Origin: Candidatus Niyogibacteria bacterium
GTDB taxonomy: Bacteria > Patescibacteriota > Minisyncoccia > HO2-45-28
NCBI GenBank assembly: GCA_016432485.1
Contig: CP066691.1
Span: 217,294 to 281,293 of the forward strand
Direction of reading: 5' to 3'
Length of the DNA: 64,000 nucleotides
In this document: in pieces, positions 26,553 through 58,040 of the stretch
Layout: every line of letters begins with the position of its first letter
Position numbering within the stretch: position 1 is the first letter of the stretch
Made by a program: the position numbers and the translations under genes
The notes under the pieces: model-generated
Seen by the model: only the letters and a program-made list of their open reading frames with translations
The model's database searches: none
Told to the model about the DNA's origin: nothing

Positions 26553-27146
26553 CTAGACGCGGCGCTTATTGAGGATTCTGCGGATTTTTTCCCTCGCCGT
26601 CGCCTTGGCACAGAACGGCCAGCCGTTCTTGAGCTCAAGGCAGAGCTCATCCAGATCAACCTTCAGGCCCTCGAGATTTCTGGTGCCTGACTGCATCCGC
26701 CCGAGTTCCGCCTCGAGCTCGGCGCGGGACATACCGCCTTGCTGTCCTTCGTAGCTCTGTTCGGGACGGATGGAGCCGACCCTGATCTTGCGGTAAAGCT
26801 CGAGCAAATCCTCCATCCTCTTCGCTCTGATGCGGATCATCCTGCCGCCACCGCTCTTGTCAACCTCCGCTTCTGCCGACTTGTGACGGTAGATGCCAAT
26901 TTCTCGTTGGGTATCCGCGTATTCGTGAAGCGAGACCTCATCAACGATGTCCGTTACTGCCTCAGGAATCGGGTCGGTCAGTTTGCCGAGGGAGATATAC
27001 CAACGCCCCTTGTCACGTAAGAGCTTGACGCCGGAAATCTCGTGCTCGTCCCACTCCTGAGGCGGTTTCCCACCCCACCTCTTCCTGGTTGTGAAGCCCT
27101 CGAGCTCCTGAACTTTGTTGCCCTTCAAGTACACGTTGACCGACAT
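26553..27146 (-). CDS. Hypothetical protein (197 aa), conspicuously GC-rich (about 55-60% by eye, against roughly 40-45% around it) with high-GC codon usage. Likely foreign
   Basis: Start MSVNVYLKGNKV with RBS AGAGGAG; the ORF track's upstream extension is rejected; own consensus promoter and terminator. Confidence 0.6.
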   Translation of the reverse strand: MSVNVYLKGNKVQELEGFTTRKRWGGKPPQEWDEHEISGVKLLRDKGRWYISLGKLTDPIPEAVTDIVDEVSLHEYADTQREIGIYRHKSAEAEVDKSGGGRMIRIRAKRMEDLLELYRKIRVGSIRPEQSYEGQQGGMSRAELEAELGRMQSGTRNLEGLKVDLDELCLELKNGWPFCAKATAREKIRRILNKRRV

Positions 27147-27261
27147 GATGCTTCTCCTCTCTTTGTGTCGCCAGGATTTCGTCAGGCTTTCTGGGCCTAT
27201 CCGTTCCGTGGTCGACTGGTTGGAATACAGTCCCACTGGACTATCCAATGAAACTATCAAA

Positions 27262-27290
27262 AGTATAGCATAGTGCAACTATTCTGTCAA
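27262..27290 (-). promoter_or_regulatory. Consensus sigma70 promoter on the minus strand: TTGACA-N17-TGcTATACT, driving cassette A
   Basis: fwd tgtcaa 27285-27290 and agtata 27262-27267, spacer 17, extended -10 TG. Confidence 0.7.
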
Positions 27291-27398
27291 GTTCGTTGGC
27301 AATAAGAAACACCTTTGTTGCAAGCTATTTTTGACCCTAACTCTTATGAAAAAAATTCTTTTGCCCTTATTGATAAATCCTTTTTGGCAGGGATGCAA

Positions 27399-27430
27399 GG
27401 AATCGCCCCGCAGCTGCGGGGTTGGAGATC
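27399..27430. repeat. 30-nt hairpin repeat copy 1 (ggaatcgCCCCGCAGCTGCGGGGttggaga), directly abutting the 3' end of tRNA-Trp
   Basis: Perfect 16-bp palindrome CCCCGCAGCTGCGGGG; second copy at 27530-27560. Confidence 0.85.
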
Positions 27431-27432
27431 TT

Positions 27433-27505
27433 TGCGGGAGCTGAGGGAATCGGACCCCCGACCGCGGTTTTGGAGACCGCCGTTATACCACTTAACTAAG
27501 CTCCC
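27433..27505 (-). tRNA. tRNA-Trp (anticodon CCA), discriminator G
   Basis: Hand-folded cloverleaf: GGGAGCT-TA-GTTA-AGTGGTA-TAAC-G-GCGGT-CTCCAAA-ACCGC-GGTC-GGGGG-TCCGATT-CCCTC-AGCTCCC-G. Confidence 0.85.
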
Positions 27506-27529
27506 TTAAAATTTTTAATCAACTTTATG

Positions 27530-27590
27530 GAATCGCCTCGCAGCTGCGGGGTTGGAGACCGACGTTCTGCCATTGAACCACACCCCCCCT
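27530..27590 (-). pseudogene. Truncated tRNA-like 5' half (acceptor stem, D arm and start of the anticodon stem, ending CTCCAA), fused at the anticodon loop to copy 2 of the 30-nt hairpin repeat
   Basis: Minus-strand reading GGGGGGTGTGGTTCAATGGCAGAACGTCGG then TCTCCAACCCCGCAGCTGCGAGGCGATTCC; no matching 3' acceptor strand anywhere nearby. Confidence 0.6.
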
Positions 27591-28033
27591 TGCGAAAAAA
27601 TAAGATTAAGCCGTTATTTTGGCTTCTTTGTGCAAAGTATGCTTTTTGCACCATTTGCGTCGCGGCTCGCTCACCTCAAGGGATTCGCTCGCGCTCCCCA
27701 GACACCTCTCGGTTTCTGGCGCTCGCTCCGCTCGCTGTTTTCCTACACGGGGAAAACTACAGTTTTCCCCGACCCCCTTTCGGGCAAATGGCACAAGGAA
27801 ACTCCTCATATAATAAATATATCAAAAATCAAGCAGTGATTTTAGATTCCTTATGAAGCGTATGTTTCTTGCACCATTTGCAATACTTTTTGAGCTCAAT
27901 TTTTCGCTCAACTTTTTTCTTGTTTTTGGTGCTGTAATAGTTCCCCCGTTTGCAAACGGAGCATTTTAGTTTGAATAAGTTCGGTTGCGGCATAATGTCT
28001 TATTTTAACAAAAAATAATAAAAAATCAACTTG

Positions 28034-28105
28034 AGCCGGAGGGGAGAATCGAACTCCCGACCTCATTCTTACCAAGAATGCGTTCTGCCACTGAACTACT
28101 CCGGC
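28034..28105 (-). tRNA. tRNA-Thr (anticodon GGT)
   Basis: GCCGGAG-TA-GTTC-AGTGGCA-GAAC-G-CATTC-TTGGTAA-GAATG-AGGTC-GGGAG-TTCGATT-CTCCC-CTCCGGC-T. Confidence 0.85.
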
Positions 28106-28124
28106 CTTTTCCCACTTTACAATA

Positions 28125-28152
28125 AAAAACGGGCGAATCAAAGATTCGCCCT
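28125..28152 (-). terminator. Rho-independent terminator (GGGCGAATC-tttg-GATTCGCCC plus a T-run) after the secreted-protein gene
   Basis: 9-bp perfect stem followed by TTTTTTATT on the minus strand. Confidence 0.75.
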
Positions 28153-28153
28153 A

Positions 28154-28753
28154 TCAGCCGCACTCATTCGGAGCATTTTGGAATTTATAGGATTTAAGCG
28201 ACATCGGAATAATTTCACTGCTTTTGAAATCGGGCGCGACATCAATAATATTCCCCGCGCACCGAGCGTACCAATAAAATATTGTGCCGCGCCAAGAGTG
28301 TTTGAGGCCGAGAAAGTACGCGTCTATTACCGCGCGGATTTTCAGCGCCTTAAAAACACCGGCGGGGACACGATGCGTTTCTTCCGCCAAAACTTCAAAA
28401 TCTGCTTTCACAAGCGCCGCCCGGCTCCATTTTCGCCAAGACCATTTCTTACCCGGATAAAGCGGGAAATCCAGTTTTTTATCTCCCCCGATCCGATTCA
28501 ATTGACTGTCGTAATTAATTTGTCCGCTTCCGATTTTAGTCGTCTCTTCAAAAACATAAATATCGCCTTGCTCCTTAATCATCTTCAAAGATATTTCGCT
28601 GGTGTTTCTCCGGTCAATAAAAATCCATTCATCTCCGACCTCAAAACGAGGGGGTTCGGTTGAGCCGATTTTAATGCCGGCTTCCAAATAATTAAAAATG
28701 AAAACCGATAAAAATACCGCCGCCATCCAAAGAAAGACGAGGCGCATCGCCAT
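28154..28753 (-). CDS. Hypothetical secreted protein (199 aa, signal peptide), native-like base composition
   Basis: N-terminal MRLVFLWMAAVFLSVFIFNYLEA; RBS GGAAGGAG; the second ATG at 28747 is the likelier start. Confidence 0.6.
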   Translation of the reverse strand: MAMRLVFLWMAAVFLSVFIFNYLEAGIKIGSTEPPRFEVGDEWIFIDRRNTSEISLKMIKEQGDIYVFEETTKIGSGQINYDSQLNRIGGDKKLDFPLYPGKKWSWRKWSRAALVKADFEVLAEETHRVPAGVFKALKIRAVIDAYFLGLKHSWRGTIFYWYARCAGNIIDVAPDFKSSEIIPMSLKSYKFQNAPNECG

Positions 28754-28814
28754 TCTCCTTCCTCAACGCAAAATATAAAGTGCTTTCAAAATGTATTTTA
28801 TGAAAAATTTAAGA

Positions 28815-28900
28815 GAAAATCAAAAAGAAGAAACCCACCAGATTGCGACCTGGTGGGTTCTGACCGAGCGCGAAGCTCGGCCGGTTAGGATTGGTCAGAA
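28815..28900 (-). terminator. Terminator module R1, one of two ~80-nt near-identical copies. Minus-strand reading: a CCGAGC/GCTCGG hairpin, then CCCACCAG-gtcgcaat-CTGGTGGG, then TTTCTTCTTTTTGATTTT
   Basis: Direct repeat of 29605-29692 with about 90% identity over about 75 nt. Confidence 0.8.
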
Positions 28901-28918
28901 CGCTCATCTCGTGGCTGG

Positions 28919-29107
28919 TTATGTGCAGAGCCATTTATTCATGTAATAAAAAGCGCTTCCAAAGAGTATATAGGTCAGCTTGTGGGTGAACTGGGCCCAC
29001 GCACCGACATCGGTGAACTTGACGCCGATGAAATAATCGATCACCGTGACGAACGCCGAAGCGATAAGCAGGAAAACGAGATAGCCGAGGAGCTTCTTGG
29101 CCTTCAT
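28919..29107 (-). CDS. Small hydrophobic protein (62 aa, 1-2 TM helices)
   Basis: MKAKKLLGYLVFLLIASAFVTVIDYFIGV...; RBS TAAGGAGA 7 nt upstream; structured leader; followed by module R1. Confidence 0.5.
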   Translation of the reverse strand: MKAKKLLGYLVFLLIASAFVTVIDYFIGVKFTDVGAWAQFTHKLTYILFGSAFYYMNKWLCT

Positions 29108-29246
29108 TATTTTGTCTCCTTAAGGTGCTGGATTACCACGATTCCCTCGTGGCAGGGTTACCGGATTTACAGGGTTTTCACCATGATTCCGATATCATTA
29201 ATAACAGTGTATTACATAATGAAAGTCAAGACAAACAAAAAAGGGT

Positions 29247-29558
29247 CTAAAATGCTGTTTGGATCGTATATTTTCCAACTTTTGTGGGCCAAGTTTTATT
29301 GGCAAGTCCCGGACTTCTTTTGCCGACCAAGTCATTTCTATAAGGTTCATTTTGGATGAAACCCATGGCAATGGTTGCGTTACATTCGGTTTCTTTGTGC
29401 AAAGAGCGGATATATTGTTCGGCTTCTTTAAGAATTGCTTCTGTGGGCCCTTCTCGAAAATCTATTTCTTCAAGATGATCAAAATCGCAGCAAGCGCACT
29501 TGCCGATAACAAATAGGCCCGTACCGACGCCTCCGGCCACGGCATATTCCTCCATCAA
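29247..29558 (-). CDS. Hypothetical Cys-rich protein (103 aa, ...GKCACCDFDH..., ...ETECNATIAMGF...)
   Basis: Preceded by a consensus promoter at 29580-29607; the competing plus-strand ORF 28982..29359 is rejected because it runs antisense across two better-supported minus-strand units. Confidence 0.45.
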   Translation of the reverse strand: MMEEYAVAGGVGTGLFVIGKCACCDFDHLEEIDFREGPTEAILKEAEQYIRSLHKETECNATIAMGFIQNEPYRNDLVGKRSPGLANKTWPTKVGKYTIQTAF

Positions 29559-29579
29559 ACTTTAAAGAATTCCAACGCT

Positions 29580-29607
29580 ATTATAATATTTTTTGGGAAG
29601 CTGTCAA
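29580..29607 (-). promoter_or_regulatory. Consensus sigma70 promoter on the minus strand, TTGACA-N16-TATAAT
   Basis: fwd tgtcaa 29602-29607, attata 29580-29585. Confidence 0.65.
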
Positions 29608-29692
29608 CAAAAAATCAAAAAGAAGAAACCCACCAGATTGCGACCTGATGGGTTCTGACCGAGCGCGAAGCTCGGCGGTTGGGGTTGGTTGG
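29605..29692 (-). terminator. Terminator module R2, duplicate of R1, directly after GC-rich ORF B
   Basis: Same hairpin and T-run as R1, with a G-to-A change in the stem. Confidence 0.8.
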
Positions 29693-29693
29693 C

Positions 29694-29951
29694 CTAGCGA
29701 GGACCGACGCGCCATCCGATCATGTTGGTGACTCGAATGGGCTCGACCAGTGCATCGGTGGTGAACTCGAGTCCACCTTTCGGATGGCGGTACGAGCTGA
29801 TCCGTATCGTCGCGCCGGATAGGATGTCCACCACGAAGAGTTCGCCCGCCGGGTTCGTGAAAACCCGCAGGTTGCCACCCTCGTAGTGGATCGGGAACTG
29901 GTCGCCCCCGAACCTGTCCTCCTTCGGCTTTTCCGTCGCGGTCTCTGGCAT
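29694..29951 (-). CDS. Hypothetical protein (85 aa), GC-rich and foreign-looking
   Basis: Start MPETATEK with a perfect RBS AAAGGAGAT; the ORF track extends to 29999; ...FGGDQFPIHYEGGNLRVFTNPAGELFVVDIL... Confidence 0.55.
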   Translation of the reverse strand: MPETATEKPKEDRFGGDQFPIHYEGGNLRVFTNPAGELFVVDILSGATIRISSYRHPKGGLEFTTDALVEPIRVTNMIGWRVGPR

Positions 29952-29984
29952 TGCGGCATCTCCTTTCATGGTTGGGGTTGAGTT

Positions 29985-30035
29985 CCTACGACACAGCAAC
30001 CAAGAAAATAAAATTTCTAAGCTATTGTGTCGTAG
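29985..30035. promoter_or_regulatory. 11-bp inverted repeat (CCTACGACACA...TGTGTCGTAGG) with a 29-nt loop, in the 5' leader of ORF B between its promoter and its RBS
   Basis: Perfect arms; candidate operator, attenuator or processing stem. Confidence 0.5.
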
Positions 30036-30082
30036 GAAAATAGGCCAAAATTCACAAGGTGCTATTTTAACTTACTGCTAGA

Positions 30083-30111
30083 AGTATAGCATATCTGTCT
30101 TATCATGTCAA
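30083..30111 (-). promoter_or_regulatory. Consensus sigma70 promoter on the minus strand, TTGACA-N17-TGcTATACT. Its -10 region is identical to that of promoter 27262-27290
   Basis: fwd tgtcaa 30106-30111 and agtatagca 30083-30091. Confidence 0.7.
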
Positions 30112-30136
30112 GCTATTGCCACTCACTTTGTTCGTG

Positions 30137-30220
30137 TGCATGGGGAGGGATTCGAACCCCCGAAGCCCATAGGGCGCTTGGTTTACAGCCAAGTGCGATT
30201 GACCACTCCGCCACCCATGC
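30137..30220 (-). tRNA. tRNA-Tyr (anticodon GTA), long variable arm, discriminator A
   Basis: GCATGGG-TG-GCG-G-AGTGGTCAAT-CGC-A-CTTGG-CTGTAAA-CCAAG-(variable arm CGCCCTATGGGCTTC)-GGGGG-TTCGAAT-CCCTC-CCCATGC-A. Confidence 0.8.
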
Positions 30221-30239
30221 GATTAAAATACCAAAACCA

Positions 30240-32915: not shown

Positions 32916-32950
32916 ATTTCAAAAAATTTCTAATTACTAATATCTAATTT

Positions 32951-34213
32951 TTAAAGATTTTGCGGGCGTTCAACAAGTTCCGCTTCCACTTTTAATTCTT
33001 CGGCGTTGCGCAATACTTTCAATTCCACTTTTTCACCCACTCTCCTTTGGCTTATCAATTTGGCTAAAGTGTTATCTTTATTCACTCTCACGCCGCCGAA
33101 CTCTAATATTATATCACCTTCTTTCAGGCCTGCGGCCTGCGCCGGAGAATTGTTTATAATCGCGGTCCGGCCTTCGCCCGCAATCAAGAGCGCGCCGTAA
33201 TCAACCGACAATTTCTTTTCTTCTTTAATTTGCGGCGTAACTGAAAGATAATGAACGCCCAGATAGGCATAGCTTATCTTTCCGAAATCGCGTACGTCCG
33301 AGACGGCTTTTTTCACGGAATTTATCGGCAAAGCGAATCCGATGCTCTGGGCTTCGGAGGCGACAGCAGTATTAATGCCGATGGCCCGTCCGGCCGAATC
33401 CAGCAGCGGACCGCCGGAATTTCCAGGGTTGATCGCGGCATCGGTTTGGATTACTTCCTGCAAAACTTCAGGGCCGGAAGCGGATCCGGAAGCGACGATC
33501 GTCCGGCTAAGTCCGGCGATGACTCCGACTGAAACCGTATTTTGAAATTCACCAAGAGCGTTGCCGATGGCCACGACTGTCTGACCGACTTTAAGATTGT
33601 CTGAATTTCCAAGCGAAATAAAAGCAAACCCGCCGCCGTCCACTTTCAAAATCGCGACGTCCTGAACCGAATCTCGCGCCAAAACTTCAGCCTTCATTTT
33701 CCGGCCGTCGTTCATTAAAACCGTGTATTCAACGGTTTTATCTTCAACCACGTGGCGATTGGTGACCAGATATCCATCCTCAGTTACAAAAAATCCGGAG
33801 CCGGCTGAAATCTGCCTTTTTTCAGTTCCTTTTTGGCGGTATTGCGGAACTAAAATCTGCGGCATCTCTCCTGAAAAAAACCGCCGGAAGAAATCATCGT
33901 TTTCAAAGGGATTGATGAAATATTGTTCTATGACCGGAACGTCTTTGGAAGCGGTAATGCTGACCACCGCCGGCAAAGTGTCGGCAACAAGCTTGATAAT
34001 TAAACCTTCCGAAGTAATAATAAAATCCGAATTTTGCTTTTGGTTATCCGACTTATTGTCTATCACTTTCTCAATCACCCGATTGATGGTTTGGGTTATT
34101 GGAGCCGGCGCCTGATTAACCAAAGTCACGCTGACAATGCCGGTAACAAGCGAAGTTATAAAACTCACCAAAAGAACCAGCAAAACTAATTGTGTTTTTG
34201 TCAGATTTTCCAT
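32951..34213 (-). CDS. htrA: HtrA/DegP-family serine protease with an N-terminal membrane anchor and a PDZ domain
   Basis: GSGFFVTEDGYLVTNRHVV (His), D, GNSGGPL (Ser) triad context; C-terminal PDZ. Confidence 0.85.
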   Translation of the reverse strand: MENLTKTQLVLLVLLVSFITSLVTGIVSVTLVNQAPAPITQTINRVIEKVIDNKSDNQKQNSDFIITSEGLIIKLVADTLPAVVSITASKDVPVIEQYFINPFENDDFFRRFFSGEMPQILVPQYRQKGTEKRQISAGSGFFVTEDGYLVTNRHVVEDKTVEYTVLMNDGRKMKAEVLARDSVQDVAILKVDGGGFAFISLGNSDNLKVGQTVVAIGNALGEFQNTVSVGVIAGLSRTIVASGSASGPEVLQEVIQTDAAINPGNSGGPLLDSAGRAIGINTAVASEAQSIGFALPINSVKKAVSDVRDFGKISYAYLGVHYLSVTPQIKEEKKLSVDYGALLIAGEGRTAIINNSPAQAAGLKEGDIILEFGGVRVNKDNTLAKLISQRRVGEKVELKVLRNAEELKVEAELVERPQNL

Positions 34214-35086: not shown

Positions 35087-35111
35087 TAATTTTCAAACGC
35101 GAATTTCAAGT

Positions 35112-35210
35112 CCCGCCGCTCTGATAGAGTGGCGGGTTTTTTTACCCCCACACCAATTGAGCAATAGCGCCTCTGGCGCAAAATAAAAAATTGCTCAATT
35201 GGTGTGGAGG
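35112..35210. terminator. Composite element E1: a GC hairpin terminator (CCCGCC...GGCGGG plus T7), then an 18-bp perfect inverted repeat CCACACCAATTGAGCAAT (24-nt loop) ATTGCTCAATTGGTGTGG
   Basis: Second copy of the same architecture at 58735-58835. Confidence 0.75.
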
Positions 35211-35211
35211 T

Positions 35212-36590: not shown

Positions 36591-36599
36591 TCTTCAATT

Positions 36600-37096: not shown

Positions 37097-37120
37097 CAAC
37101 CCATTCAACTATTCGAGCGA
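37097..37120. promoter_or_regulatory. Candidate ArsR-family operator 1: TCAACTATTCGAGCGAATGTGAAA, centred on the palindrome CATTCG-agc-GAATG, between arsR and sufU
   Basis: Near-identical second copy upstream of arsR. Confidence 0.55.
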
Positions 37121-37384
37121 ATGTGAAATATATTTGGCTATGTGGTGGCATTCCGAAGAAAGACGATACCACATCTCCGAACTCCTCTGTTCTTTCTCCG
37201 TAATGTCGGCGGCGGCCAGCACTCCCAGATGTTTTGAGGTGGCCGTAAAAGATATTTTGATTTCTTCGGCAATATCGCCGACAGTCGCTTCTTTTTCTTT
37301 TTTTAGATATTTAACAATGGCCAACCTGCGCCTGTTGGCTAGGGCTTTCAAAATTCTTTCCGTTGCTTTTATATTATCTTTCAT
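37109..37384 (-). CDS. ArsR/SmtB-family HTH transcriptional regulator. A SufR-like role is inferred from its position in front of sufU
   Basis: 91 aa ...LANRRRLAIVKYLKKEKEATVGDIAEEIKISFTATSKHLGVL... Confidence 0.8.
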   Translation of the reverse strand: MKDNIKATERILKALANRRRLAIVKYLKKEKEATVGDIAEEIKISFTATSKHLGVLAAADITEKEQRSSEMWYRLSSECHHIAKYISHSLE

Positions 37385-37419: not shown

Positions 37420-37443
37420 TACTCATTCAACCATTCGAGCGAA
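37420..37443. promoter_or_regulatory. Candidate ArsR-family operator 2: TCAACCATTCGAGCGAATGAGAAA, upstream of arsR
   Basis: Identical at 21 of 24 positions with site 1, including the full CATTCGAGCGAATG core. Confidence 0.55.
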
Positions 37444-37464
37444 TGAGAAAGAGGAAGGAAAAAT

Positions 37465-37515
37465 TTAGGGAGAATTTGGGGAGAATTTAGGGAGAACTTG
37501 GAGGAGAATTTTTTG
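37465..37515. repeat. Tandem 11-mer (atttRgggaga) x4, directly in front of the exonuclease promoter
   Basis: atttagggaga atttggggaga atttagggaga acttggaggaga. Confidence 0.8.
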
Positions 37516-38964: not shown

Positions 38965-39012
38965 TAAAAAGACGGGTTAGCAGGTTTCCCCACTAACCCG
39001 TCTGTGTTGTTT
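38965..39012 (-). terminator. Rho-independent terminator (10-bp perfect stem GACGGGTTAG / CTAACCCGTC) after the GC-rich ORF 39047-39439
   Basis: Hairpin followed by TTTTTAT on the minus strand. Confidence 0.7.
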
Positions 39013-39046: not shown

Positions 39047-39439
39047 CTAGGCCAGAAGCTTCTGGAGTGCCGACACCTCTGGTGTCACGATGTTGATGGG
39101 CTTGCAGAGGAACGCAATCAGCTCCTCGAGCGGGTGCCGGGGACCGGGCAGCAGGGCGCTGAAAACGTTCTCCTTGACAAGGAGCGCGCCGTCCGCGTCC
39201 ATGATGCGGACCTCGCAGTAACTGCCCTCCTCCCAGTGCTTGGCCTCCACCCGCACGGAAACGACGCAGGCACCGTTGGCGCCGAAGAGGCGGTAGAGAT
39301 TGGGATCGCTCTCGTCTTTCTCCGGGCGCAGGGCGCAGAACTTCTCGGCCACCTTCTCCCACAACCGCATCACCATGGTTCGGTTCTGTTGATCGTAATA
39401 TCTCATGAAATCACCTCCTCCCTTTTTTGTCTCGGTCAT
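39047..39439 (-). CDS. Hypothetical protein (119-130 aa), strongly GC-rich (about 60% by eye). Foreign-looking mini-cassette inserted downstream of sufS
   Basis: Two in-frame starts: 39439 (RBS AAAGGAG, spacing 11) and 39406 (RBS GGGAGGAGGTGA, spacing 4). Confidence 0.55.
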   Translation of the reverse strand: MTETKKGGGDFMRYYDQQNRTMVMRLWEKVAEKFCALRPEKDESDPNLYRLFGANGACVVSVRVEAKHWEEGSYCEVRIMDADGALLVKENVFSALLPGPRHPLEELIAFLCKPINIVTPEVSALQKLLA

Positions 39440-39460: not shown

Positions 39461-39489
39461 ATGCTACACCCTTATTGTTATTTTGTCAA
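39461..39489 (-). promoter_or_regulatory. Consensus-like promoter on the minus strand, TTGACA-N17-TAGCAT(ATA)
   Basis: fwd tgtcaa 39484-39489 and atgcta 39461-39466. Confidence 0.6.
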
Positions 39490-39510: not shown

Positions 39511-40791
39511 TTACCACACCGTGCGAACAAACTTTTTGTGAATTTCTTTAAGCGCGCGGATAAAATAATCTATTTCTTCTTTGGTATTGTAAATATAAAA
39601 ACTTGCTCGTAATGTCGCGAGAACGCCCAAATGCTTCATCAAGGGTTGGGCGCAATGGTGGCCGGCGCGAACCGCTATGCCATATCGGTCAAGCATGGTT
39701 GCCGCATCATGCGGATGAATCCCGTCCCGGTAACATATTTTCGACAATTGTTGAAAATATGTTACTCCGCAAATATTAAACGAAATAATTCCGGTGCGGT
39801 CCTTTGTTTTTTCAAATCCGAGCAAGTCCACAAACGGCAGTTTTTTCATTTTTTCCAGCGCGTATTTTAAAAGTTCGCGCTCGTGATGCTCAATATTTTT
39901 CATTCCGATTTTTTTCAAATAATCAATTGCTTCGCCGAACAAAATCGCGCCTTCTATATTCGGTGTGCCCGCTTCAAACTTCCACGGCAAATCATTCCAA
40001 GTTACGCTTTTAGCCGTAACCTCGCGTATCATCTCGCCTCCTGACATAAACGGCTCCATACTTTCCAAAATTTCAGATCTCCCCCAAAGCGCGCCGATGC
40101 CTGACGGCGCTAGCATTTTATGACCCGAGAAAGCGAAAAAATCGCAGCCGATTTTACGAACGTTCACCGGAATGTGTCCGGCAGATTGAGCGCCGTCAAT
40201 CAAAATCAAAGCCCCGACTTTATGCGCCTCTTTACATATTTTTTCAACCGGATAAATATAGCCGGAGACGTTTGAAATGTGGGCTACGGCGACTAATTTT
40301 GTTTTTTTAGTCAATTTTTTTCTGAAATCCGTGAAATCAAAATCGCGCGTTGATGTTAATTTGACGATATCCAGTTTTAATCCGCGCTCGCGAGCCAGAC
40401 GCAGCCACGGCACAAAATTGGAATGATGCTCCGAAATCGTCGTCAGTATTCTATCGCCTCTTTTAAATTTTCGCCCCAAAGAGTAAGCGACTAAATTGAC
40501 GGCTTCGGTGGCGTTACGGGTGAAAATTATTTCTTTAGAACTTTGCGCGCCGATAAAATCGGCGGCTTTTTGTCGGGAGAGCTCAAATTCTTTCGTGATT
40601 TCTTCGGCCATCTGATAGGCCCCGCGATGCACATTGGCGTAAGAATGCGCGTATAGTTTTTTCAGCCGCTCCGTAATAATTTTCGGCTTCTGGGTAGTGG
40701 CGGCGTTGTCAAAATAAACAATAGCGCGTCCGTTTATTTTTCGCGTAAGTACCGGAAAGTCCTTTTTTATTTTTTTGAAATTAAAAATCAT
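39511..40791 (-). CDS. sufS: Cysteine desulfurase SufS (class V aminotransferase, PLP-dependent), carrying a 12-residue in-frame insertion encoded by the palindromic element
   Basis: ...HKMLAPSGIGALWGR..., active-site region RAGHHCAQPLM; the insertion ...SFNICG[VTYFQQLSKICY]RDGIHPHD... sits where canonical SufS has about 4 residues. Confidence 0.88.
   Translation of the reverse strand: MIFNFKKIKKDFPVLTRKINGRAIVYFDNAATTQKPKIITERLKKLYAHSYANVHRGAYQMAEEITKEFELSRQKAADFIGAQSSKEIIFTRNATEAVNLVAYSLGRKFKRGDRILTTISEHHSNFVPWLRLARERGLKLDIVKLTSTRDFDFTDFRKKLTKKTKLVAVAHISNVSGYIYPVEKICKEAHKVGALILIDGAQSAGHIPVNVRKIGCDFFAFSGHKMLAPSGIGALWGRSEILESMEPFMSGGEMIREVTAKSVTWNDLPWKFEAGTPNIEGAILFGEAIDYLKKIGMKNIEHHERELLKYALEKMKKLPFVDLLGFEKTKDRTGIISFNICGVTYFQQLSKICYRDGIHPHDAATMLDRYGIAVRAGHHCAQPLMKHLGVLATLRASFYIYNTKEEIDYFIRALKEIHKKFVRTVW
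39730..39765. repeat. Copy C of the 36-bp palindromic element (GTAACATATTTTCGACAATTGTTGAAAATATGTTAC), codon-aligned and in frame inside sufS
   Basis: Hand translation of the minus strand gives exactly 12 codons, VTYFQQLSKICY, with no stop. Confidence 0.9.
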
Positions 40792-41388
40792 TTAAACTAA
40801 AAGTGTTTTTATAATTTTCTCCGTTTCCGCCAAACCCAAACCGGCCCGCGAAAGGGGCGCTGATAAAAATCCCGCGCTTTTCAGCCGCTCCGCCTTAATC
40901 CGGTCAACTCCTCTTGTCGCCATATAAAAAATATCTTCGTCGGATATTTTAGATACGGTTGCCGCGTGTCCCGCCCGTTCAACTTCGCTTGTCAGTATTT
41001 CCAGACGGGGGTCTACGCGACAGCTTGCCTCATCAAAAATAATCGCCCGTCCGTCAAACCATGCGCTGGAATTCTTCGCGGCGCTACCAACCTTCACGTT
41101 CCCGGCAATCTCTCCCGATGAATCGTCTCTGCCGATGCAGCGAACCATAGTGTTTGAAAAAGAATTTTCTCCCAGATGGTTCACGCGTATATTTATGCTT
41201 ATTTTATCCGTTTTACTCGCCGAAAACAAAAAAATATTGGTCAACTTTGCCCATTCGGCCAGATTGAATTCCAGATTCCCCGCGAAACTTTTTACCCCAC
41301 CTAAAAGCCAGACAAAGGTTTTTTTTTGGTTGGAGGAGATGCGAAAATTTTTGTCTATTTTTTTACTTTTAATAAATTCTATTTTCAA
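40792..41388 (-). CDS. sufD: Short SufD-like protein (SufBD family, 198 aa, C-terminal beta-helix region only)
   Basis: ...AGHAATVSKISDEDIFYMATRG..., similar to the SufB/SufD C-terminus; placed between sufB and sufS. Confidence 0.65.
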   Translation of the reverse strand: MKIEFIKSKKIDKNFRISSNQKKTFVWLLGGVKSFAGNLEFNLAEWAKLTNIFLFSASKTDKISINIRVNHLGENSFSNTMVRCIGRDDSSGEIAGNVKVGSAAKNSSAWFDGRAIIFDEASCRVDPRLEILTSEVERAGHAATVSKISDEDIFYMATRGVDRIKAERLKSAGFLSAPLSRAGLGLAETEKIIKTLLV

Positions 41389-41426
41389 AATTTTTAGAAA
41401 TTAGAAATTAGTAATTAGAAATTGCA

Positions 41427-50546: not shown

Positions 50547-50566
50547 TAAATATATTATATCAGAAA

Positions 50567-51286: not shown

Positions 51287-51307
51287 AACAAACTGAGTAT
51301 ATCTTTT

Positions 51308-52285: not shown

Positions 52286-52365
52286 ATATTGATTTTACAT
52301 TAAATACGTAATAAATCAAAAATGCCCCGCGAGCAATGCCCGCGGGGCGAAATTTATTCCGGATA

Positions 52366-53376
52366 TCACAAAGATTTTTCAAAAAATCTTAATAGGTTTT
52401 TGCCAAGAACTCCGACTATCCTTTTCCAGAGAGACGCGCTTAAACTAATTTCGTCTTCAATTTTTTCCATCATATCCGGCCCGGTCAAATCTTCAACATA
52501 TTCTGGGAAACGAACCCGCATTTTTCCATCGGGGTCCAGCTTTGATTTCTTCATATTAAAGTTTTTCCTGGCTTCTTCCGAACCGACATTTACGTGCGGA
52601 GCATCACTGCCAATGCAGACGCTGTCAGCCGGCAGTTCTCGAATGGCGTACCGAAAATGCTTAATAAAGGCCTCGGGACTGTTGTCCTTCTCGTCAAGCA
52701 AAAAGGTCTGAATAAGTAAACCGACTACGCCCCCCATATCCGCGATTTGTTGAAGCAGACTTATGGAGAGATTACGCGGATGTTTATAAACCTGAAAAAC
52801 GCCCGTGTGTGACGCAAACACCGGCAAACCAGCGAAATTTTTTATGACGAATACAATGGCATCTTGCGCCGTCTGATGGCTGGCATGAGAAAGATCAAGA
52901 ATCATTCCGTTTTCCGCCAAGGCCTTAAGAAATTTTTCGCCTTCCTTTGTTAGTCCCATGTCAGGATTTTTCCATCCGCTGCCAAAAGAATTCTTTTCAT
53001 CATAAGCAATTCCCATTACGCGAATTCCTGCCTGATAAAGTTTACCGATATCGTCGGGCTCGGCATCTTCGGGCACGTGCTGCATACCAAGAACAACGGC
53101 TGTTCTGTTATTATAAGTGTCAACTGTATTAAACTCGTCTAACTCTTCTTTCGACCGTACAACCCTCAATCTCGGCTGATTTTCAATCTGTTTCAAAAAA
53201 TCATTATGCGCCTTAAGCGCCTCGTCCATCGTCTTTGCCCACGGCGGCACGGAAGTTAAATGCACCAAATCAAGCCGTAATTCAGGGTCAACTTGAATTT
53301 TTCCGCCGGGCAGGCCCAAAAACCCAAGAGAATCGGCGTAATACATCTCTTTACCTCCTTTCTTTTTTCTAGGCAT
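52366..53376 (-). CDS. Membrane dipeptidase (peptidase M19 family)
   Basis: M19 fold conserved segments (...LDLSHASHQT..., ...HTGVF...); start possibly at the internal MYYADSLG. Confidence 0.7.
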   Translation of the reverse strand: MPRKKKGGKEMYYADSLGFLGLPGGKIQVDPELRLDLVHLTSVPPWAKTMDEALKAHNDFLKQIENQPRLRVVRSKEELDEFNTVDTYNNRTAVVLGMQHVPEDAEPDDIGKLYQAGIRVMGIAYDEKNSFGSGWKNPDMGLTKEGEKFLKALAENGMILDLSHASHQTAQDAIVFVIKNFAGLPVFASHTGVFQVYKHPRNLSISLLQQIADMGGVVGLLIQTFLLDEKDNSPEAFIKHFRYAIRELPADSVCIGSDAPHVNVGSEEARKNFNMKKSKLDPDGKMRVRFPEYVEDLTGPDMMEKIEDEISLSASLWKRIVGVLGKNLLRFFEKSL

Positions 53377-53431
53377 TTTTCAAATCCGGCATAAAGTTAG
53401 CACATTACTTAACTATTGTCAAATCTTTTTA

Positions 53432-54358
53432 TTACTTTTGGATTTTGGCCAAATCCGGATCATCAAAAATTTCAGTAGTTTTCCATCGATCTTCCCGCTC
53501 ATTAAAATCAAGCCGCGCGATTTTGGCAATCTTTTTTCTGGCCTCTTCAAGACCGGGCTGCTGAAGTATTTTTTCAATTATCCTCATTAGTTCTTTGTCC
53601 TCTTTTTGCAAGGCCCGCTCAATACCATGATGAGCGGCGCCAAAAATGGCGGCCAGTTCCGGCTTTTCTGATACTTCTCCGGATTCGGCTCTTAAATGTC
53701 CGGCTATGGCGCGCATTTTTTTAGCAGCAAGATGATTGCGCAAAGTTAAAATTATTTTCTCGGTTTCCGGATGAATCCTTTCGTTTAAATCCATTAAAAA
53801 TCTGCTAACGGCGCGGGTGGCGCTTTGTTCATCTACTCTTTTCCTCTCTAAAATTGCTGATATGGACATCGATGTGTGACTAAAAAAATAAAGCCCGGCG
53901 GCTGCCTTTGCTGACTTTTTTAAAAACTCGCGCCGACTTATCTTTTTCTCCGAAGTAAAATCTTTGGACAAAGATGCCAATAAGAAAATTCCCAATGTAG
54001 GTTCAACAATCTGTAATATCGTCTCTATATTCATACGCATTTCTGCTTCAGAAATATCAGCCAAAAAGACAGGTCTTTTTTCTTTTTCAATGCGCTCTAT
54101 AACAGGACGATACTGGACAAAATGCCTCGCCCAAGAGTTCATTGTATTTTCAGCTCGGACGGGTGTTGAATAATCTCCTATCGTTTCCAAAAAAACCGCG
54201 TCTGCTTTACCGATATCCTCCGGCTTTTGAGGAACAGTGTGCACGCCGTAAACAATACGAAATTTTGCTTCTGGCGATTCAATCAAAACCGCGTTTTCAG
54301 TTAATCCCTCTTTGATATCCGGCCCTTTTTTAATTTCCAAACCCTCAAAACCTTTCAT
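53432..54358 (-). CDS. Hypothetical protein (about 309 aa from MKGFEG)
   Basis: ORF only; the ORF track's longer version would overlap fba by 140 nt. Confidence 0.45.
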   Translation of the reverse strand: MKGFEGLEIKKGPDIKEGLTENAVLIESPEAKFRIVYGVHTVPQKPEDIGKADAVFLETIGDYSTPVRAENTMNSWARHFVQYRPVIERIEKEKRPVFLADISEAEMRMNIETILQIVEPTLGIFLLASLSKDFTSEKKISRREFLKKSAKAAAGLYFFSHTSMSISAILERKRVDEQSATRAVSRFLMDLNERIHPETEKIILTLRNHLAAKKMRAIAGHLRAESGEVSEKPELAAIFGAAHHGIERALQKEDKELMRIIEKILQQPGLEEARKKIAKIARLDFNEREDRWKTTEIFDDPDLAKIQK

Positions 54359-54359
54359 A

Positions 54360-55226
54360 TCAGACCCTGTTTTTACTCCCGAAAAGTTCCAGCTTTTCCG
54401 AAACTTTAGCGGAAACCGCCTCAACCACCGGTTTATAAATTTTATAAGGCGTTGTCTCTTCGGGCGCGGCTTGAAGCATTTTGCGAAGAGCGTCAACATA
54501 TGCCGCGCGGATTTCGGTTGAAATATGGATATTATTGAATCCCGACTTCACGGCCTCCCGCATTTGCTCATCGGAAACGCCTGAGCCGCCGTGTAAAACC
54601 ATGGCCGTATCAGAAGGCAAAACCGCGCGCAGTTTTTTAATAAGTTCAAAATCAAGTTTCGGTTCGTTGGCCGCAATACCATGAAGATTTCCTACGGCCG
54701 GCGCGAAACGGTCAACGCCGGTTTCCTGCACGAATTTCAGCGCCTCTTCCGGTTTGGTCAAACTTTCCTGCGGAATTTCAAATGACTCTTTATAAATTTT
54801 TGACGATTCGGTGACCAGATAGCCGAGCTCGCCCTCAACGCTTATCTCCGGATTAACGGATTTGGCGTATTCAACAACTCTTTTTGTTTCTTCCAGATTT
54901 TTTCTGTAATTTTCGCGCGACAAGTCAATCAAAACCGAATCGTATCCGGAGTCAATCGCCTCACGCGCTTTTTCAAAACCGTGAAAATGGTCGGCGTTTA
55001 AAAAAATGGGCAGGCCCGCTTCTTCTTCAGCCGCGTCAATCATGACCCTAGCCATTTTAAAGCGGATGAAATCGGCCTCTCCTTCGGATGTGCCTATCAT
55101 TACAGGCGAACGCGCGCTTAAACAAGCCGAAACGACCCCTTTTAACTGGACGAGATTAGAAATATTAAAATGCGGCATTGCCCACCCCTCATCCAAAGCT
55201 TTAGCCAACCATTCCTTTAAACCCAT
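54360..55226 (-). CDS. fba: Class II fructose-bisphosphate aldolase
   Basis: 288 aa; AMPHFNISNLVQLKGV...; zinc-binding His residues. Confidence 0.88.
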   Translation of the reverse strand: MGLKEWLAKALDEGWAMPHFNISNLVQLKGVVSACLSARSPVMIGTSEGEADFIRFKMARVMIDAAEEEAGLPIFLNADHFHGFEKAREAIDSGYDSVLIDLSRENYRKNLEETKRVVEYAKSVNPEISVEGELGYLVTESSKIYKESFEIPQESLTKPEEALKFVQETGVDRFAPAVGNLHGIAANEPKLDFELIKKLRAVLPSDTAMVLHGGSGVSDEQMREAVKSGFNNIHISTEIRAAYVDALRKMLQAAPEETTPYKIYKPVVEAVSAKVSEKLELFGSKNRV

Positions 55227-55253
55227 TATTTTTTAAAATTGATAATTGATAAT

Positions 55254-56525
55254 TTACAACGTTACATATCCCTTTGAAAAATTCTTTATGACCATCCTGC
55301 GCGTTTCTTCTTTGCCGACATAAGAAGCGAAGATTTTATTCCAAAGCGCTTCCTGATGATGGTAAAGATATTTTATCATCTCCTTTTCTTTGACCAAAGC
55401 CATTACCGTATCAATCAGATTGAAACTGACCAGGATGTTGGCGCCGGATTCAGTCGGAAAATGGTTCCCCACCCAACCCAAATCGTGCCAAAAACTCAAA
55501 TCAAGCCCCGGAAATTTTTCATTGATGTGCGCGATATTCTCTTCGGCCTTGGACCAATGGATGGCCTCCGGGTTAATATGCGGCTCAAAAAGCCGCCAGT
55601 CATTCTCGTCGTCTTTAGCCAAATATCTTTGTACTATCATCCAATTCAGCTTACGGCTGTCAGGAAGGCGTTTATCCAAAACATCACCCCTAAGGGAAGC
55701 CGTCAAAAAATTGGAAAATGTTTCGGAAAACCACAGCGGGTCTTGAGGGTGTTCGGCGTGTTCATAAAACATATCGGAATAAAAAGTTATTTCGTGCAAA
55801 TAATGCAAAATAAGGGTAAAGAGCCGCAGGGATTCGCCGGGCGTTTTAATGTCTTGGGGCAAAACGAAAATCAGCCCCAACTCTTTTAAGTGGCTGACAT
55901 TGTGATATTTCTTTTCCATAAATTTTTCAGCCAATCGTATCCAATTGTTGCCCAAAACCAAAAGGTCTATTTTTCTTCTTTCAAAATCATCCGGCGTCAA
56001 TTCGGAATATGGAGCGAAAAAAACATTGTTCAGCCAATCTCGGTCTTCGGCAAAACGAAGGGCCGAAAAAACCTTTCTTATATCTTCTTTGGCCAAAAGG
56101 TCTTTGATGTCGCCTGCGCCGAAAAAAGACATAATATTTTTCGGCGGATTCATCCGAAGCAGCTCTTCGGCCTTTGACCATTTAAGAAAAAATCCTTCAC
56201 CGACCATGGACAACTCATCCGCTTTTTCGGTTAAAATGCGATAACTTTCGGGGTCGGTTCCGGCGCGTATTCCAAAAGCGCGCGCAAGAGATTCATCGTC
56301 TTCCTGAACTTTTTTAATCAGCGCGCGGTATATCGTGACCGCATGTACATCGCTGATTTTTAACTCCTTTAAAACGGACTCTATGCGCCTGTGATTTTCT
56401 AGGCATACGCTCGCGACAACCCCGGATTTACCGAAACGCTTAGCCATCATTTCATCCATATGCGCGAGAGTATCCTGGTCAACGCGCAAAATCCCGGCAA
56501 GGCATTTTAACGGGTCTTCATTCAT
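55254..56525 (-). CDS. Hypothetical protein (423 aa)
   Basis: ORF only; overlaps the pfkB-family gene by 4 nt. Confidence 0.5.
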   Translation of the reverse strand: MNEDPLKCLAGILRVDQDTLAHMDEMMAKRFGKSGVVASVCLENHRRIESVLKELKISDVHAVTIYRALIKKVQEDDESLARAFGIRAGTDPESYRILTEKADELSMVGEGFFLKWSKAEELLRMNPPKNIMSFFGAGDIKDLLAKEDIRKVFSALRFAEDRDWLNNVFFAPYSELTPDDFERRKIDLLVLGNNWIRLAEKFMEKKYHNVSHLKELGLIFVLPQDIKTPGESLRLFTLILHYLHEITFYSDMFYEHAEHPQDPLWFSETFSNFLTASLRGDVLDKRLPDSRKLNWMIVQRYLAKDDENDWRLFEPHINPEAIHWSKAEENIAHINEKFPGLDLSFWHDLGWVGNHFPTESGANILVSFNLIDTVMALVKEKEMIKYLYHHQEALWNKIFASYVGKEETRRMVIKNFSKGYVTL

Positions 56526-57529
56526 ATTTTTTCAGACGAAATCTTTAATTTAGACCAGCGCGCTTTTAAGAATTCTTTTTTGGTAATAAGTCCGGCTTTG
56601 GCCCCCACGCGCTCAACTTTGGAAGTGGCATTGGCATTAGCCAGACGAAGAGCAAAAATAATATTTTTGGGCTTTCGCATAAGGCCGGCCGTAAACCCCG
56701 AACCAAAGGCATCGCCAGCTCCGGTGCGGTCAACGATGGCTTTTTCTTTGAATGTGCCGCTTCGCCAAATAGTTTTGCCGTCGGAAACGAACGACCCTTC
56801 GGGCCCCCTGGTCATCACGGCAATGCCGTCAATAATCTCGTCAAATTTTTTAAAAATCTTTTTTGTGTTTTGATACGGAATTTTCAAAAGGTCCGCGGCT
56901 TCTTCCTGATTGATTATAAAAATGTCAATGTGGCGTAAATACGGCTTCAGTTTGGCCAAACCTAGTTTCAAATCATTGCCTCCGGGATTCCAGGCGATAC
57001 GCGCGCCGTATTTTTTCTTAAGGTCCATCGCGCTTTTCACGATGTCCAAATCCCCCGATAATGAACTTAAATAAATCCAGCGGGCTTTAATTTTAGCCCA
57101 CGGAATTTCACTGGCGTTCAGGCGCCAATTGGCGCCTCGATGAGTTAAAATTGTCCGCTCTCCCGATGGATGTTCCAAAATAACCGAGTAAGCCGTGGAC
57201 AATTTTGAATCGCGCTGGATAAAACCGGTGTCCACTTTTTCTTTTTTCATCTCGCGCAAAACCGCTTCTCCCGAAACATCATTGCCGATTCTGAAAATTG
57301 CCGATGTTTTAAAACCTTGTCGGGCAAAGGTAGCGGCGGTGTTTGTGCCGGCGCCACCCGTTGAAAAATGAACTTCGTCAATGGCGATTTTTGTGCCCAA
57401 ATCAAAACCTAAACCCCTGCCCGTAAAAAATTTCGGGCTTTTTAGAATTTTGAAACTCTTTGACCTAAAAAGCGCGTCACGGGTAGCCGAGCCAATGGTA
57501 ATAACATCAAACATAAATACATTATACAT
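56522..57529 (-). CDS. PfkB-family carbohydrate kinase (ribokinase/fructokinase-like)
   Basis: ITIGSATRD...; C-terminal DRTGAGDAFGSGF anion-hole motif. Confidence 0.82.
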   Translation of the reverse strand: MYNVFMFDVITIGSATRDALFRSKSFKILKSPKFFTGRGLGFDLGTKIAIDEVHFSTGGAGTNTAATFARQGFKTSAIFRIGNDVSGEAVLREMKKEKVDTGFIQRDSKLSTAYSVILEHPSGERTILTHRGANWRLNASEIPWAKIKARWIYLSSLSGDLDIVKSAMDLKKKYGARIAWNPGGNDLKLGLAKLKPYLRHIDIFIINQEEAADLLKIPYQNTKKIFKKFDEIIDGIAVMTRGPEGSFVSDGKTIWRSGTFKEKAIVDRTGAGDAFGSGFTAGLMRKPKNIIFALRLANANATSKVERVGAKAGLITKKEFLKARWSKLKISSEKI

Positions 57530-57580
57530 TCTGTTTTCTTTAAAGTATAATAACTATGGATATTCTCGTATAGTAAGAGG

Positions 57581-57701
57581 GGCGCAGGCAATGGTCGGAC
57601 CTGGCGGATGTCATGTTGATGTGGAAGAATGTCATTGTTCTTGCCATGAACCCGGCTCTTCCAAAGTTCATATGAAAAAGAAATTCAATAAGGTTAAATA
57701 A
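57581..57701 (+). CDS. Small Cys/His-rich peptide (about 39 aa: MVGPGGCHVDVEECHCSCHEPGSSKVHMKKKFNKVK)
   Basis: RBS AAGAGGGG; followed by the terminator GCCGCGAA-tt-TCGCGGC plus a T-run at about 57733-57765; below the cutoff of the ORF track. Confidence 0.4.
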
Positions 57702-57800
57702 GGACTAAATGTCACCGTCTATAAAAACTATGCCGCGAATTTCGCGGCACTTTTATTTTTTTAATCCAAGAGCCCTTAGTTTAAGGCATTTTTTATTCTA

Positions 57801-57829
57801 TTGACAAAATAATGACTTTGATATATAAT
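57801..57829 (+). promoter_or_regulatory. Perfect consensus sigma70 promoter TTGACA-N17-TATAAT
   Basis: ttgaca 57801-57806, tataat 57824-57829. Confidence 0.7.
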
Positions 57830-57878
57830 TAAGTAGGAAAATCTGGTTGCTGTACACCAACCATAGGGAGAAAAACAA

Positions 57879-58040
57879 ATGGAAGAAGATAGGTGGTTTC
57901 TTGTTTCGCTGTTTGGAACGTTGCTACTGATGTTACTCCCGCTCATCGTCCAGATCATCGCCCCACAGCTCCATCAAGACCCTTCCCCGGCCCACATCTA
58001 CCCCGCTGACCGCGTCTTGGAACAACTGTCGTTTCGGTGA
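57879..58040 (+). CDS. Small hydrophobic peptide (53 aa, one TM helix), GC-rich. MEEDRWFLVSLFGTLLLMLLPLIVQIIAPQLHQDPSPAHIYPADRVLEQLSFR
   Basis: RBS GGGAG 9 nt upstream; found by hand (below the ORF-track cutoff); the minus-strand ORFs 57776..57958 and 57933..58145 are rejected. Confidence 0.45.
   Translation: MEEDRWFLVSLFGTLLLMLLPLIVQIIAPQLHQDPSPAHIYPADRVLEQLSFR

Follow-up and report, generated by a model that had tools for sequence, protein, structure and literature searches.

A 64,000-nucleotide stretch of the genome of Candidatus Niyogibacteria bacterium (contig CP066691.1, positions 217,294 to 281,293; hereafter the window, numbered from its first nucleotide) contains at least five very small open reading frames (ORF1 to ORF5), most of which differ sharply from the surrounding genes in their G+C content at third codon positions (GC3). 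The source contig is 836,981 bp long, and the organism, identified from the NCBI names of the ORF1 to ORF3 proteins, belongs to the Candidate Phyla Radiation (CPR), or Patescibacteria. ORF1 to ORF4 had been singled out in an initial annotation as four G+C-rich mini-genes; a fifth GC3-rich unit, ORF5, had been overlooked. We favour, with moderate confidence, the reading that the flagged ORFs and ORF5 are monocistronic 'plug-in' units, acquired laterally as complete, expression-ready blocks from Patescibacteria of 50-60% G+C. Directly observed are the composition of the units, the anatomy of their promoters and terminators, the families to which they belong, the borders of the cassette, the variability of genomic context, a recombination scar and the covariation of a leader RNA; from these we infer the direction and mechanism of transfer and the functions of the leader and the proteins. 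In each unit a small ORF would be preceded by a promoter of the sigma-70 type, a leader and a strong Shine-Dalgarno (SD) site and followed by an intrinsic terminator, the proteins being unrelated. Promoter and terminator would arrive with the gene, so that each unit has its own; such signals do accompany the gene in relatives of the ORF1, ORF2 and ORF3 families. Coordinates are collected in Table 1.

GC3 was compared with a background of 52 genes of the window, and z-scores were calculated against length-matched windows of those genes. In this window, where overall G+C is 45.0%, background GC3 is 0.460±0.038, with a maximum of 0.536. ORF1 (0.735, z 6.1), ORF2 (0.786, z 5.3) and ORF3 (0.81-0.84, z 6.6-6.9) have values reached by 0 length-matched windows of any background gene. 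The initial annotation had described all four ORFs as rich in G+C and GC3, and had itself raised uniform codon usage as an objection. The objection does not hold, as ORF1 to ORF3 are clear outliers, and the preferred codons had been correctly named; ORF4 is only marginal. Its GC3 of 0.654 (z 2.5) is matched by 0.2% of length-matched background windows, its high G+C is confined to the 3′ two-thirds, and its G+C peak of 0.59 is equalled by many ordinary segments of the window. ORF5 has a GC3 of 0.698; the hydrophobic nature of its peptide keeps its overall G+C unremarkable. Codon choice in the G+C-rich ORFs, compared with the background, is shifted towards CTC (47% versus 6%), GAG (78% versus 31%), AAG (77% versus 25%), ATC (73% versus 17%) and TTC (100% versus 27%). 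Likelihoods point the same way: the codons of ORF1, ORF2, ORF3 and ORF5 score -1.46 to -1.70 bits per codon under six CPR loci of 49-58% G+C, and are less well explained by the resident genome (-1.89 to -1.95 bits per codon). The bias is absent from rpmG and from ordinary window genes, and the segment 29247-29555, lying between units, has a GC3 of 0.39.

Third-position periodicity is strong in ORF1, ORF2 and ORF3. Pairwise pN/pS ratios are 0.4-0.65 across the three families (0.5-0.65 for ORF1), which indicates that they are protein-coding and fast-evolving. The alternative that these G+C-rich segments are non-coding RNAs was ruled out by the periodicity, the existence of conserved protein families, pN/pS below 1 and the lack of an Rfam match.

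The boundaries of a unit are best seen for ORF1. Its closest homologue (70% amino acid identity) lies on a contig of about 60% G+C, L046, among other neighbours (truB); the two genes adjoining it there have a G+C of 0.59-0.62 and a GC3 of 0.68-0.72. Positions 180-1140 of L046 and 26460-27384 of the window form a single blastn alignment of 965 columns at 77.8% identity. Similarity stops sharply on both sides and nothing aligns outside. We therefore delimit a cassette of 925 nt, which takes in some 95 nt before the -35 box and some 55 nt after the terminator.

The ORF1 family comprises about 28 proteins of roughly 190-250 residues among 5.8 billion, with invariant residues that include R48, R81, G84, Y86, A91, G124, I126, S131 and Q136. 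The AlphaFold model of ORF1 (predicted local distance difference test score, pLDDT, 88.7) consists of a beta-rich domain of some 130 residues and, after it, two long helices, a fold without match in the PDB or BFVD. Each recovered family locus has a TTGACA-type promoter about 130 nt upstream, the conserved leader, a strong SD and a G+C-rich terminator at the 3′ end. What changes is the neighbourhood: among the 19 loci compared, no pair has a common flanking gene within 3 kb. In one family locus, on the JGI contig L009, the homologue lies antisense between atpG and atpD, inside an ATP-synthase operon. That operon (L009, 7057-14707) is broken repeatedly, with small DUF5647 and DUF7718 genes and a 155-residue ORF between atpA and atpG, and its beta subunit is 667 residues long, with an N-terminal NYN domain. 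Another locus, with a full leader motif (82.6 bits), is found in a metagenome-assembled genome (MAG) labelled 'uncultured Gammaproteobacteria' (CAZXML010000001.1); either the label is wrong, or the ORF1 cassette exists outside Patescibacteria.

The ORF1 leader, a 5′ untranslated region (UTR) of about 110 nt lying just upstream of the SD, is conserved together with the gene. Its core is linked to the 5′ hairpin P0 by a conserved GUACAUUYCCAAC sequence, and its junctions, ACGGAU and AACGRAAU in the family, read ACGGAU and AACGAAAU in the window. Over the 19 loci, 92% of cells are paired and compensatory changes occur in 11 of 15 pairs. None of 500 shuffles reached the observed values, slid controls gave 0.04-0.11 compared with 0.379, and RNAalifold independently produced the same helices. 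A covariance model of the motif, R1, scores 86.9 bits in the window and 47-90 bits across the family, with one copy per locus; its 22 matches are always immediately 5′ of an ORF1 homologue. Elsewhere in the window, including upstream of ORF2 to ORF4, R1 has no match. The leader itself has none in Rfam 15, whether at the gathering threshold or at E≤10, and literature searches on Parcubacteria RNA motifs and on a family-specific RNA motif in the phylum found nothing relevant. On this comparative evidence the leader of the ORF1 family is well supported as a new, previously undescribed structured RNA. It probably controls ORF1 in cis, by binding either the ORF1 protein or a small ligand; as the motif occurs with one gene family only, autoregulatory binding of the protein would be favoured over a metabolite riboswitch. 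In the predicted minimum free energy (MFE) fold the SD is unpaired and no expression platform sequestering it is predicted. A K-turn, a hammerhead and a glutamine riboswitch were weighed by eye for the internal loop, and none is supported by the sequence pattern or by Rfam.

Next to the ORF1 cassette lies what appears to be a recombination scar. On the minus strand, rpmG is followed by a G+C-rich insert of about 190 nt and then by a duplicate of its final 16 codons; next come a tRNA-Trp reduced to its 5′ half, a 30-nt sequence, a functional tRNA-Trp, the 30-nt sequence again, about 15 nt, and then the cassette. The truncated tRNA-Trp breaks at the anticodon loop, where it runs into the 30-nt sequence. 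The two copies of the rpmG end (27830-27881 and 27606-27658) are 77% identical over 57 nt, and a 67-residue ORF (27606-27809) terminates within the duplicate. The insert has no codon periodicity (GC1/2/3 = 0.65/0.57/0.59) and a stable fold (z = -2.8). In a Paceibacterota MAG, L037, rpmG directly abuts tRNA-Trp, from which we conclude that recombination with foreign, though syntenic, DNA has rebuilt the resident locus. Anchors for incoming DNA may have been provided by conserved sequences of tRNA genes and rpmG; the DNA would insert at intergenic junctions and leave scars behind. Such a role would explain why ORF1, ORF2 and several relatives adjoin tRNA genes.

The expression signals were compared with chance. 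As the initial annotation had stated, each flagged ORF has a near-consensus TTGACA-N17 promoter, with 10 to 12 of 12 matches, and a strong SD; the ORF5 promoter is a weaker match (TTGACT-17-TGTTAT). The argument drawn from them, that perfect promoters are rare and hence telling, has to be dropped. The window contains 8 sites with at least 11 of 12 matches, where Markov simulations give 1.0±1.0, and 5 of these 8 (4342, 16404, 29607, 34227 and 34282) are away from the G+C-rich ORFs; the two that were checked, 29607 and 34282, are located upstream of genes of ordinary G+C. Promoters of this quality are therefore general to this genome and not confined to the foreign-looking ORFs. TAGCATA/TATGCTA has 9 copies in the window (4±2 expected). 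In its recurrence at -10 regions, two orientations had been merged: on the sense strand, ORF1 and ORF2 have TATGCTATACT, an extended -10 (TGn), whereas in ORF3 and the exonuclease gene TAGCAT(A) is the -10 hexamer itself. Four 11-nt repeats (GGGAGAATTTA) are found at 37457-37500, just upstream of that exonuclease promoter. As for the hairpin terminators said to follow each ORF, those of ORF1 and ORF3 are the top two terminator-like sites within 25-45 kb and ORF2 has a double hairpin; the ORF4 hairpin, with its displaced T-run, was not called by the terminator scan.

Table 1. Features of the G+C-rich units and of the adjoining scar (window coordinates; CDS, coding sequence)
Feature	Position	Strand	Remarks
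ORF1 cassette, whole transferable block	26460..27384	-	one blastn block to L046
ORF1 intrinsic terminator	26516..26544	-	12-bp stem, 9 GC pairs, T-run; rank 1 in 25-45 kb
ORF1 CDS	26553..27146	-	197 residues; HYY55_01230
ORF1 leader core motif	27155..27222	-	P1 (10 bp, two bulges) encloses conserved junctions and hairpin P2
ORF1 leader 5′ hairpin P0	27228..27256	-	13 bp in the MFE fold; equivalent in most relatives
ORF1 promoter	27262..27290	-	TTGACA-17-TATACT, TG extended -10; 11/12; kept in family members
Scar region	27399..27587	-	truncated tRNA-Trp, divergent functional tRNA-Trp and 30-nt direct repeat; tRNA calls from ARAGORN and Rfam
30-nt direct repeat	27399-27428 / 27529-27558	-	copies 97% identical; contains palindrome CCCCGCAGCTGCGGGG
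Functional divergent tRNA-Trp	27434-27505	-	75% identical to that of L037
Truncated resident-type tRNA-Trp	27528-27587	-	100% over 27 nt to L037 tRNA-Trp
Second two-hairpin module, after ORF5	28817..28881	-	near-identical copy; fold z = -5.3
ORF5	28919..29107	-	62 residues, two hydrophobic stretches; HYY55_01255; fifth GC3-rich unit; called by NCBI
ORF2 3′ two-hairpin module and terminator	29612..29676	-	sequence conserved in L037 and L038
ORF2 CDS	29694..29951	-	85 residues; HYY55_01265
ORF2 leader long hairpin	29983..30038	-	inverted repeat; leader fold z = -3.9
ORF2 promoter	30083..30111	-	TTGACA-17-TATACT with TG; 11/12; directly after tRNA-Tyr (30136-30220)
ORF3 intrinsic terminator	38970..39003	-	15-bp stem and T-run
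ORF3 CDS	39047..39439	-	130 residues as annotated; HYY55_01330
ORF3 promoter	39461..39489	-	TTGACA-17-TAGCAT; 10/12
ORF4 promoter	57801..57829	+	TTGACA-17-TATAAT; 12/12
ORF4	57879..58040	+	putative CDS, 53 residues, one hydrophobic helix; orphan
ORF4 3′ hairpin	58069..58101	+	11 bp; fold z = -3.3; T-run begins 10 nt later

ORF1, ORF2, ORF3 and ORF5 are annotated by NCBI as hypothetical proteins. ORF1, ORF2 and ORF3 represent three separate families of uncharacterised small proteins, whose named members are all Patescibacteria; sequence searches of the ORFs in Pfam, NCBIfam, PHROGs, PADLOC and the PDB gave no match. The ORF2 family has about 70 cluster representatives, 75-115 residues in length, and 51 proteins, with Paceibacterota or Patescibacteria as named sources. 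The AF2 model of ORF2 (pLDDT 85.8) is a seven-stranded all-beta fold that found no match in the PDB. Homologues of ORF2 carry a leader of their own, SD-proximal, with an AACC..AACC pattern. The two-hairpin 3′ module of the family is, judged by its sequence conservation, a second conserved element new here, and ORF5 is followed by a near-identical copy. ORF5, seen only on the NCBI contig, has its own SD and a structured leader of about 115 nt (to about 29229; z = -3.1). Exact copies of the sequence GGTTGCTGT occur at just two places in the window, in the ORF2 leader (29993-30001) and in the ORF4 leader (57845-57853). At both, CCAACCAT and the SD come after it in less than 30 nt, a pattern absent from the other 36 loci.

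For ORF3, six relatives were found. Its start is probably the second ATG, at 39406, behind GGGAGGAGG, since the alignment with homologues begins there; the protein would then have 119 residues. The closest homologue (57-58% amino acid identity) is in a MAG of 57.7% G+C, L041, where the gene has a G+C of 0.61, near that of its neighbours. A distant member, with its own TTGACA promoter, has a GC3 of only 0.30 on a short contig of 36-40% G+C, and the ORF3 family is therefore not intrinsically G+C-rich.

The idea of one selfish gene family had been put forward for these units. It does not survive an all-against-all BLASTP comparison (E>1). Leaders and terminators differ, and the R1 leader is found only at ORF1. 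The non-coding parts held in common are limited to the 3′ module, in ORF2 and ORF5, and the short leader motif, in ORF2 and ORF4.

The recent transfer from a high-G+C source that had been proposed stands as regards lateral origin, which fits the codon likelihoods and the closest homologues, and falls short as regards a single donor. Within the close clade of ORF1, the GC3 of the gene rises with the G+C of the host (Spearman 0.89, p = 0.007, n = 7), as partial amelioration would give. Several observations nevertheless weigh against lateral acquisition as we propose it. Gene GC3 is higher than host GC3 in 19 of 20 ORF1- and ORF2-family loci, high-G+C hosts included (sign test, p = 4e-5), and pure provenance explains this excess only if transfers went mostly from high to low G+C. 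ORF2 is syntenic with L037, in a tRNA-Tyr ... tRNA-Thr-rpmG-tRNA-Trp neighbourhood, and this synteny could reflect old vertical residence, with G+C held high by something else. The nearest sampled relatives have 58-70% protein identity, and the actual donor is not among them. Among 1.84 billion representatives, ORF4 had no match other than itself. The search for an empty site, or for a presence/absence polymorphism, was negative for every unit, the contigs with the 166-residue neighbour all fitting the presence of ORF1. On the side of mechanism, eight cassettes had no consistent terminal inverted or direct repeats, no target duplication and no integrase; the absence of consistent terminal repeats also led us to discard transposon-like ends.

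Part of these points would be accounted for if the genes were long resident in Patescibacteria, their GC3 being kept high by synonymous-site selection (for instance on the stability or structure of monocistronic mRNAs expressed at very high levels) or by GC-biased gene conversion that accompanies frequent recombination. We hold this to be unlikely, though to be taken seriously. The excess over the host is seen in hosts of GC3 0.25-0.64, with an offset of +0.04 to +0.22 in those of high G+C. ORF2 and its L037 homologue are 63.5% identical as proteins, similar to rpmG (about 55%, estimated by eye), and in this comparison ORF2 has a GC3 of 0.79 in a host of GC3 about 0.47-0.50; signals for high expression are, moreover, present on every unit. 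Yet the distant ORF3-family member with its GC3 of 0.30, on a short low-G+C contig, does not behave as expected of genes held at high GC3, nor do two other loci, L020, ameliorated to +0.03, and L032, whose offset is negative (-0.07). Core genes, rpmG among them, and ordinary window genes do not show the bias, and translational selection in a 45% G+C genome would not usually favour AAG and GAG; on both grounds we judged translational selection unlikely to lie behind the high GC3. The effects of GC-biased gene conversion reported for bacteria are far below +0.25-0.35 in GC3, which we also count against this explanation. Finally, the ORF1 block ends abruptly and has new neighbours in each genome.

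The arrival of all units from one donor, in one event and as a single foreign fragment, seems improbable to us. ORF1, ORF2, ORF3 and ORF5 have similar GC3 (0.70-0.84) and codon preferences, and ORF1, ORF5 and ORF2 are found within 3.7 kb (26460-30111), around the rpmG/tRNA-Trp scar locus. ORF2 and ORF5 also have the near-identical 3′ module in common, and ORF2 and ORF4 the GGTTGCTGT...CCAACCAT leader motif. The distance from this cluster, however, is 9 kb to ORF3 and 28 kb to ORF4, and the units are separated by genes of ordinary G+C, such as rpmG and the 29247-29555 segment. The nearest relatives are on different contigs (ORF1 on L046, ORF2 on L037 and L040, ORF3 on L041), none of which has another of the families in its flanks, and ORF2 appears syntenic with the Paceibacterota MAG and not newly inserted. 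The single source proposed by the initial annotation is thus not borne out, the nearest relatives lying in different genomes.

Somewhat more doubtful still is a speculation on the ORF1 unit: at about 0.9 kb, it might represent a selfish, autonomous element of a kind new in Patescibacteria, spreading without a recognisable recombinase. Leader RNA and ORF1 protein would form a ribonucleoprotein for the maintenance or spread of the element itself, in place of plain cis-regulation by the leader, the G+C excess being the signature of the element lineage.

That the units are morons of phage origin, or what is left of a prophage or plasmid, is very improbable. The succession of promoter, small ORF and terminator with deviant composition is the textbook layout of a moron, and ORF4 and ORF5 encode small hydrophobic peptides like many phage accessory genes. 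The likeness goes no further than layout: the PHROG search of the four ORFs gave no match, the three families are absent from 2.9 million IMG/VR contigs, a tblastn search with ORF1 of the INPHARED phages and PLSDB plasmids gave no match, the fold search in BFVD was negative, and the genes flanking the units are housekeeping ones (ClpB, tRNA-Tyr, tRNA-Thr and tRNA-Trp, rpmG, a HAD hydrolase, IMPDH, the sufCBDS operon, NifU and an ArsR-type regulator). The phage source suggested at first is not borne out.

As for contaminant DNA or an assembly chimera, a worry voiced together with the first description, its probability is next to nil: the abrupt change in composition and several Logan contig ends near unit borders are all that suggests it, whereas 18 Logan contigs, assembled independently from more than 10 sequencing runs and 99.9-100% identical to the window, read across the two junctions of ORF1 (27687 to 16553) and the two of ORF3 (45560 to 36927), and the same proteins are present in NCBI and Logan. 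Logan contigs stop repeatedly at 27687, 27658, 26552, 26363, 38880 and 37128, several of which are unit borders; position 26552 is one base past the ORF1 stop codon. These recurrent ends could reflect strain heterogeneity at cassette borders, or merely low coverage.

Other repeats were noticed in the window. A composite element, a terminator hairpin followed by a palindrome, occurs twice, at 35113-35211 and 58738-58836, 23.6 kb apart; the palindrome has 22-nt arms (ACCCCCACACCAAT..GCAAT and ATTGC..ATTGGTGTGGGGGT) and a 24-nt spacer. A palindromic element of about 40 nt, GGTAACATATTTCTGACAATTGTTAGAAATATGTTAC, is found at 13276-13297, 13885-13925 and 39726-39766, one copy being within the 3′ part of the sufS ORF. 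Two A+T-rich sequences of 38 nt (32925-32962 and 41386-41423) are 92% complementary to each other, one just upstream of ClpB and the other of a gene for a 198-residue protein with a SufBD core domain. A 30-nt direct repeat (37099-37128 and 37421-37450) surrounds the ArsR-type gene, and tandem repeats of 8/16 nt (AAAGGTTTAAAAGTTT...) are present near the end of the window, at 63586-63713.

CPR bacteria, with their tiny genomes, are usually discussed in terms of gene loss; the data presented here suggest gain as well, of very small, expression-ready units from relatives that differ in base composition. Literature searches on codon-usage islands in CPR found nothing relevant. The units also point to where and how such DNA lands, namely at the junctions of tRNA genes and rpmG, where recombination scars are left. 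The analysis defines three families of small, uncharacterised proteins, two of them with confident structure models, as candidates for accessory functions of episymbionts. For those who scan genomes there is a word of caution: a perfect TTGACA-N17-TATAAT is normal in this genome and by itself no sign of foreign or engineered DNA. New here are, besides the fifth unit, the extent of the ORF1 cassette and the scar next to it, a pair of conserved non-coding modules, above all the ORF1 leader RNA.

How do these units compare with known systems? ORF4 and ORF5 resemble type I toxin-like peptides in being short (53 and 62 residues) and hydrophobic, with strong promoters and structured leaders, but no antisense RNA or homologue was identified for either, and the comparison stops at resemblance. 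Integron cassettes are, like our units, small, single-gene, mobile and arranged side by side. They are promoterless, end in attC and lie beside an integrase gene, whereas each unit here brings a promoter and a terminator of its own, and the 3′ module that occurs twice is a double hairpin resembling a terminator. No attC or IntI was seen, and the neighbouring genes that were inspected included no integrase.

Morons are reportedly self-contained transcription units that phage genomes, lambdoid and other, have gained, a concept due to Hendrix and colleagues. The units share with them a small ORF with its own sigma-70 promoter and intrinsic terminator (atypical for ORF4) and a deviant composition. 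Insertion between otherwise contiguous genes is seen in a relative, between atpG and atpD in L009, while no empty site was found for the units of the window. They differ in being located in a cellular chromosome among housekeeping genes, and the structured leader RNA of ORF1 is outside the moron concept. That leader resembles those of ribosomal-protein genes and riboswitches, being a 5′ UTR with helices backed by covariation and highly conserved internal-loop nucleotides; unlike them, it is not in Rfam 15 and is limited to one mobile orphan gene family.

A last comparison is with tRNA-adjacent genomic islets. The units are smaller (0.4-0.9 kb, with a single gene), have no integrase or shared att-type terminal repeat, and their apparent donors would belong to the same phylum. 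They share with islets a deviant composition and a patchy distribution, and they adjoin tRNA genes, Trp and Tyr in the window, Asp, Ser and His in relatives; the partial tRNA duplication beside ORF1 may correspond to an islet border. Two marks of horizontally acquired islets are likewise found: a donor-like codon usage and, with the exception of ORF2, which is syntenic with L037, a patchy and variable genomic context.

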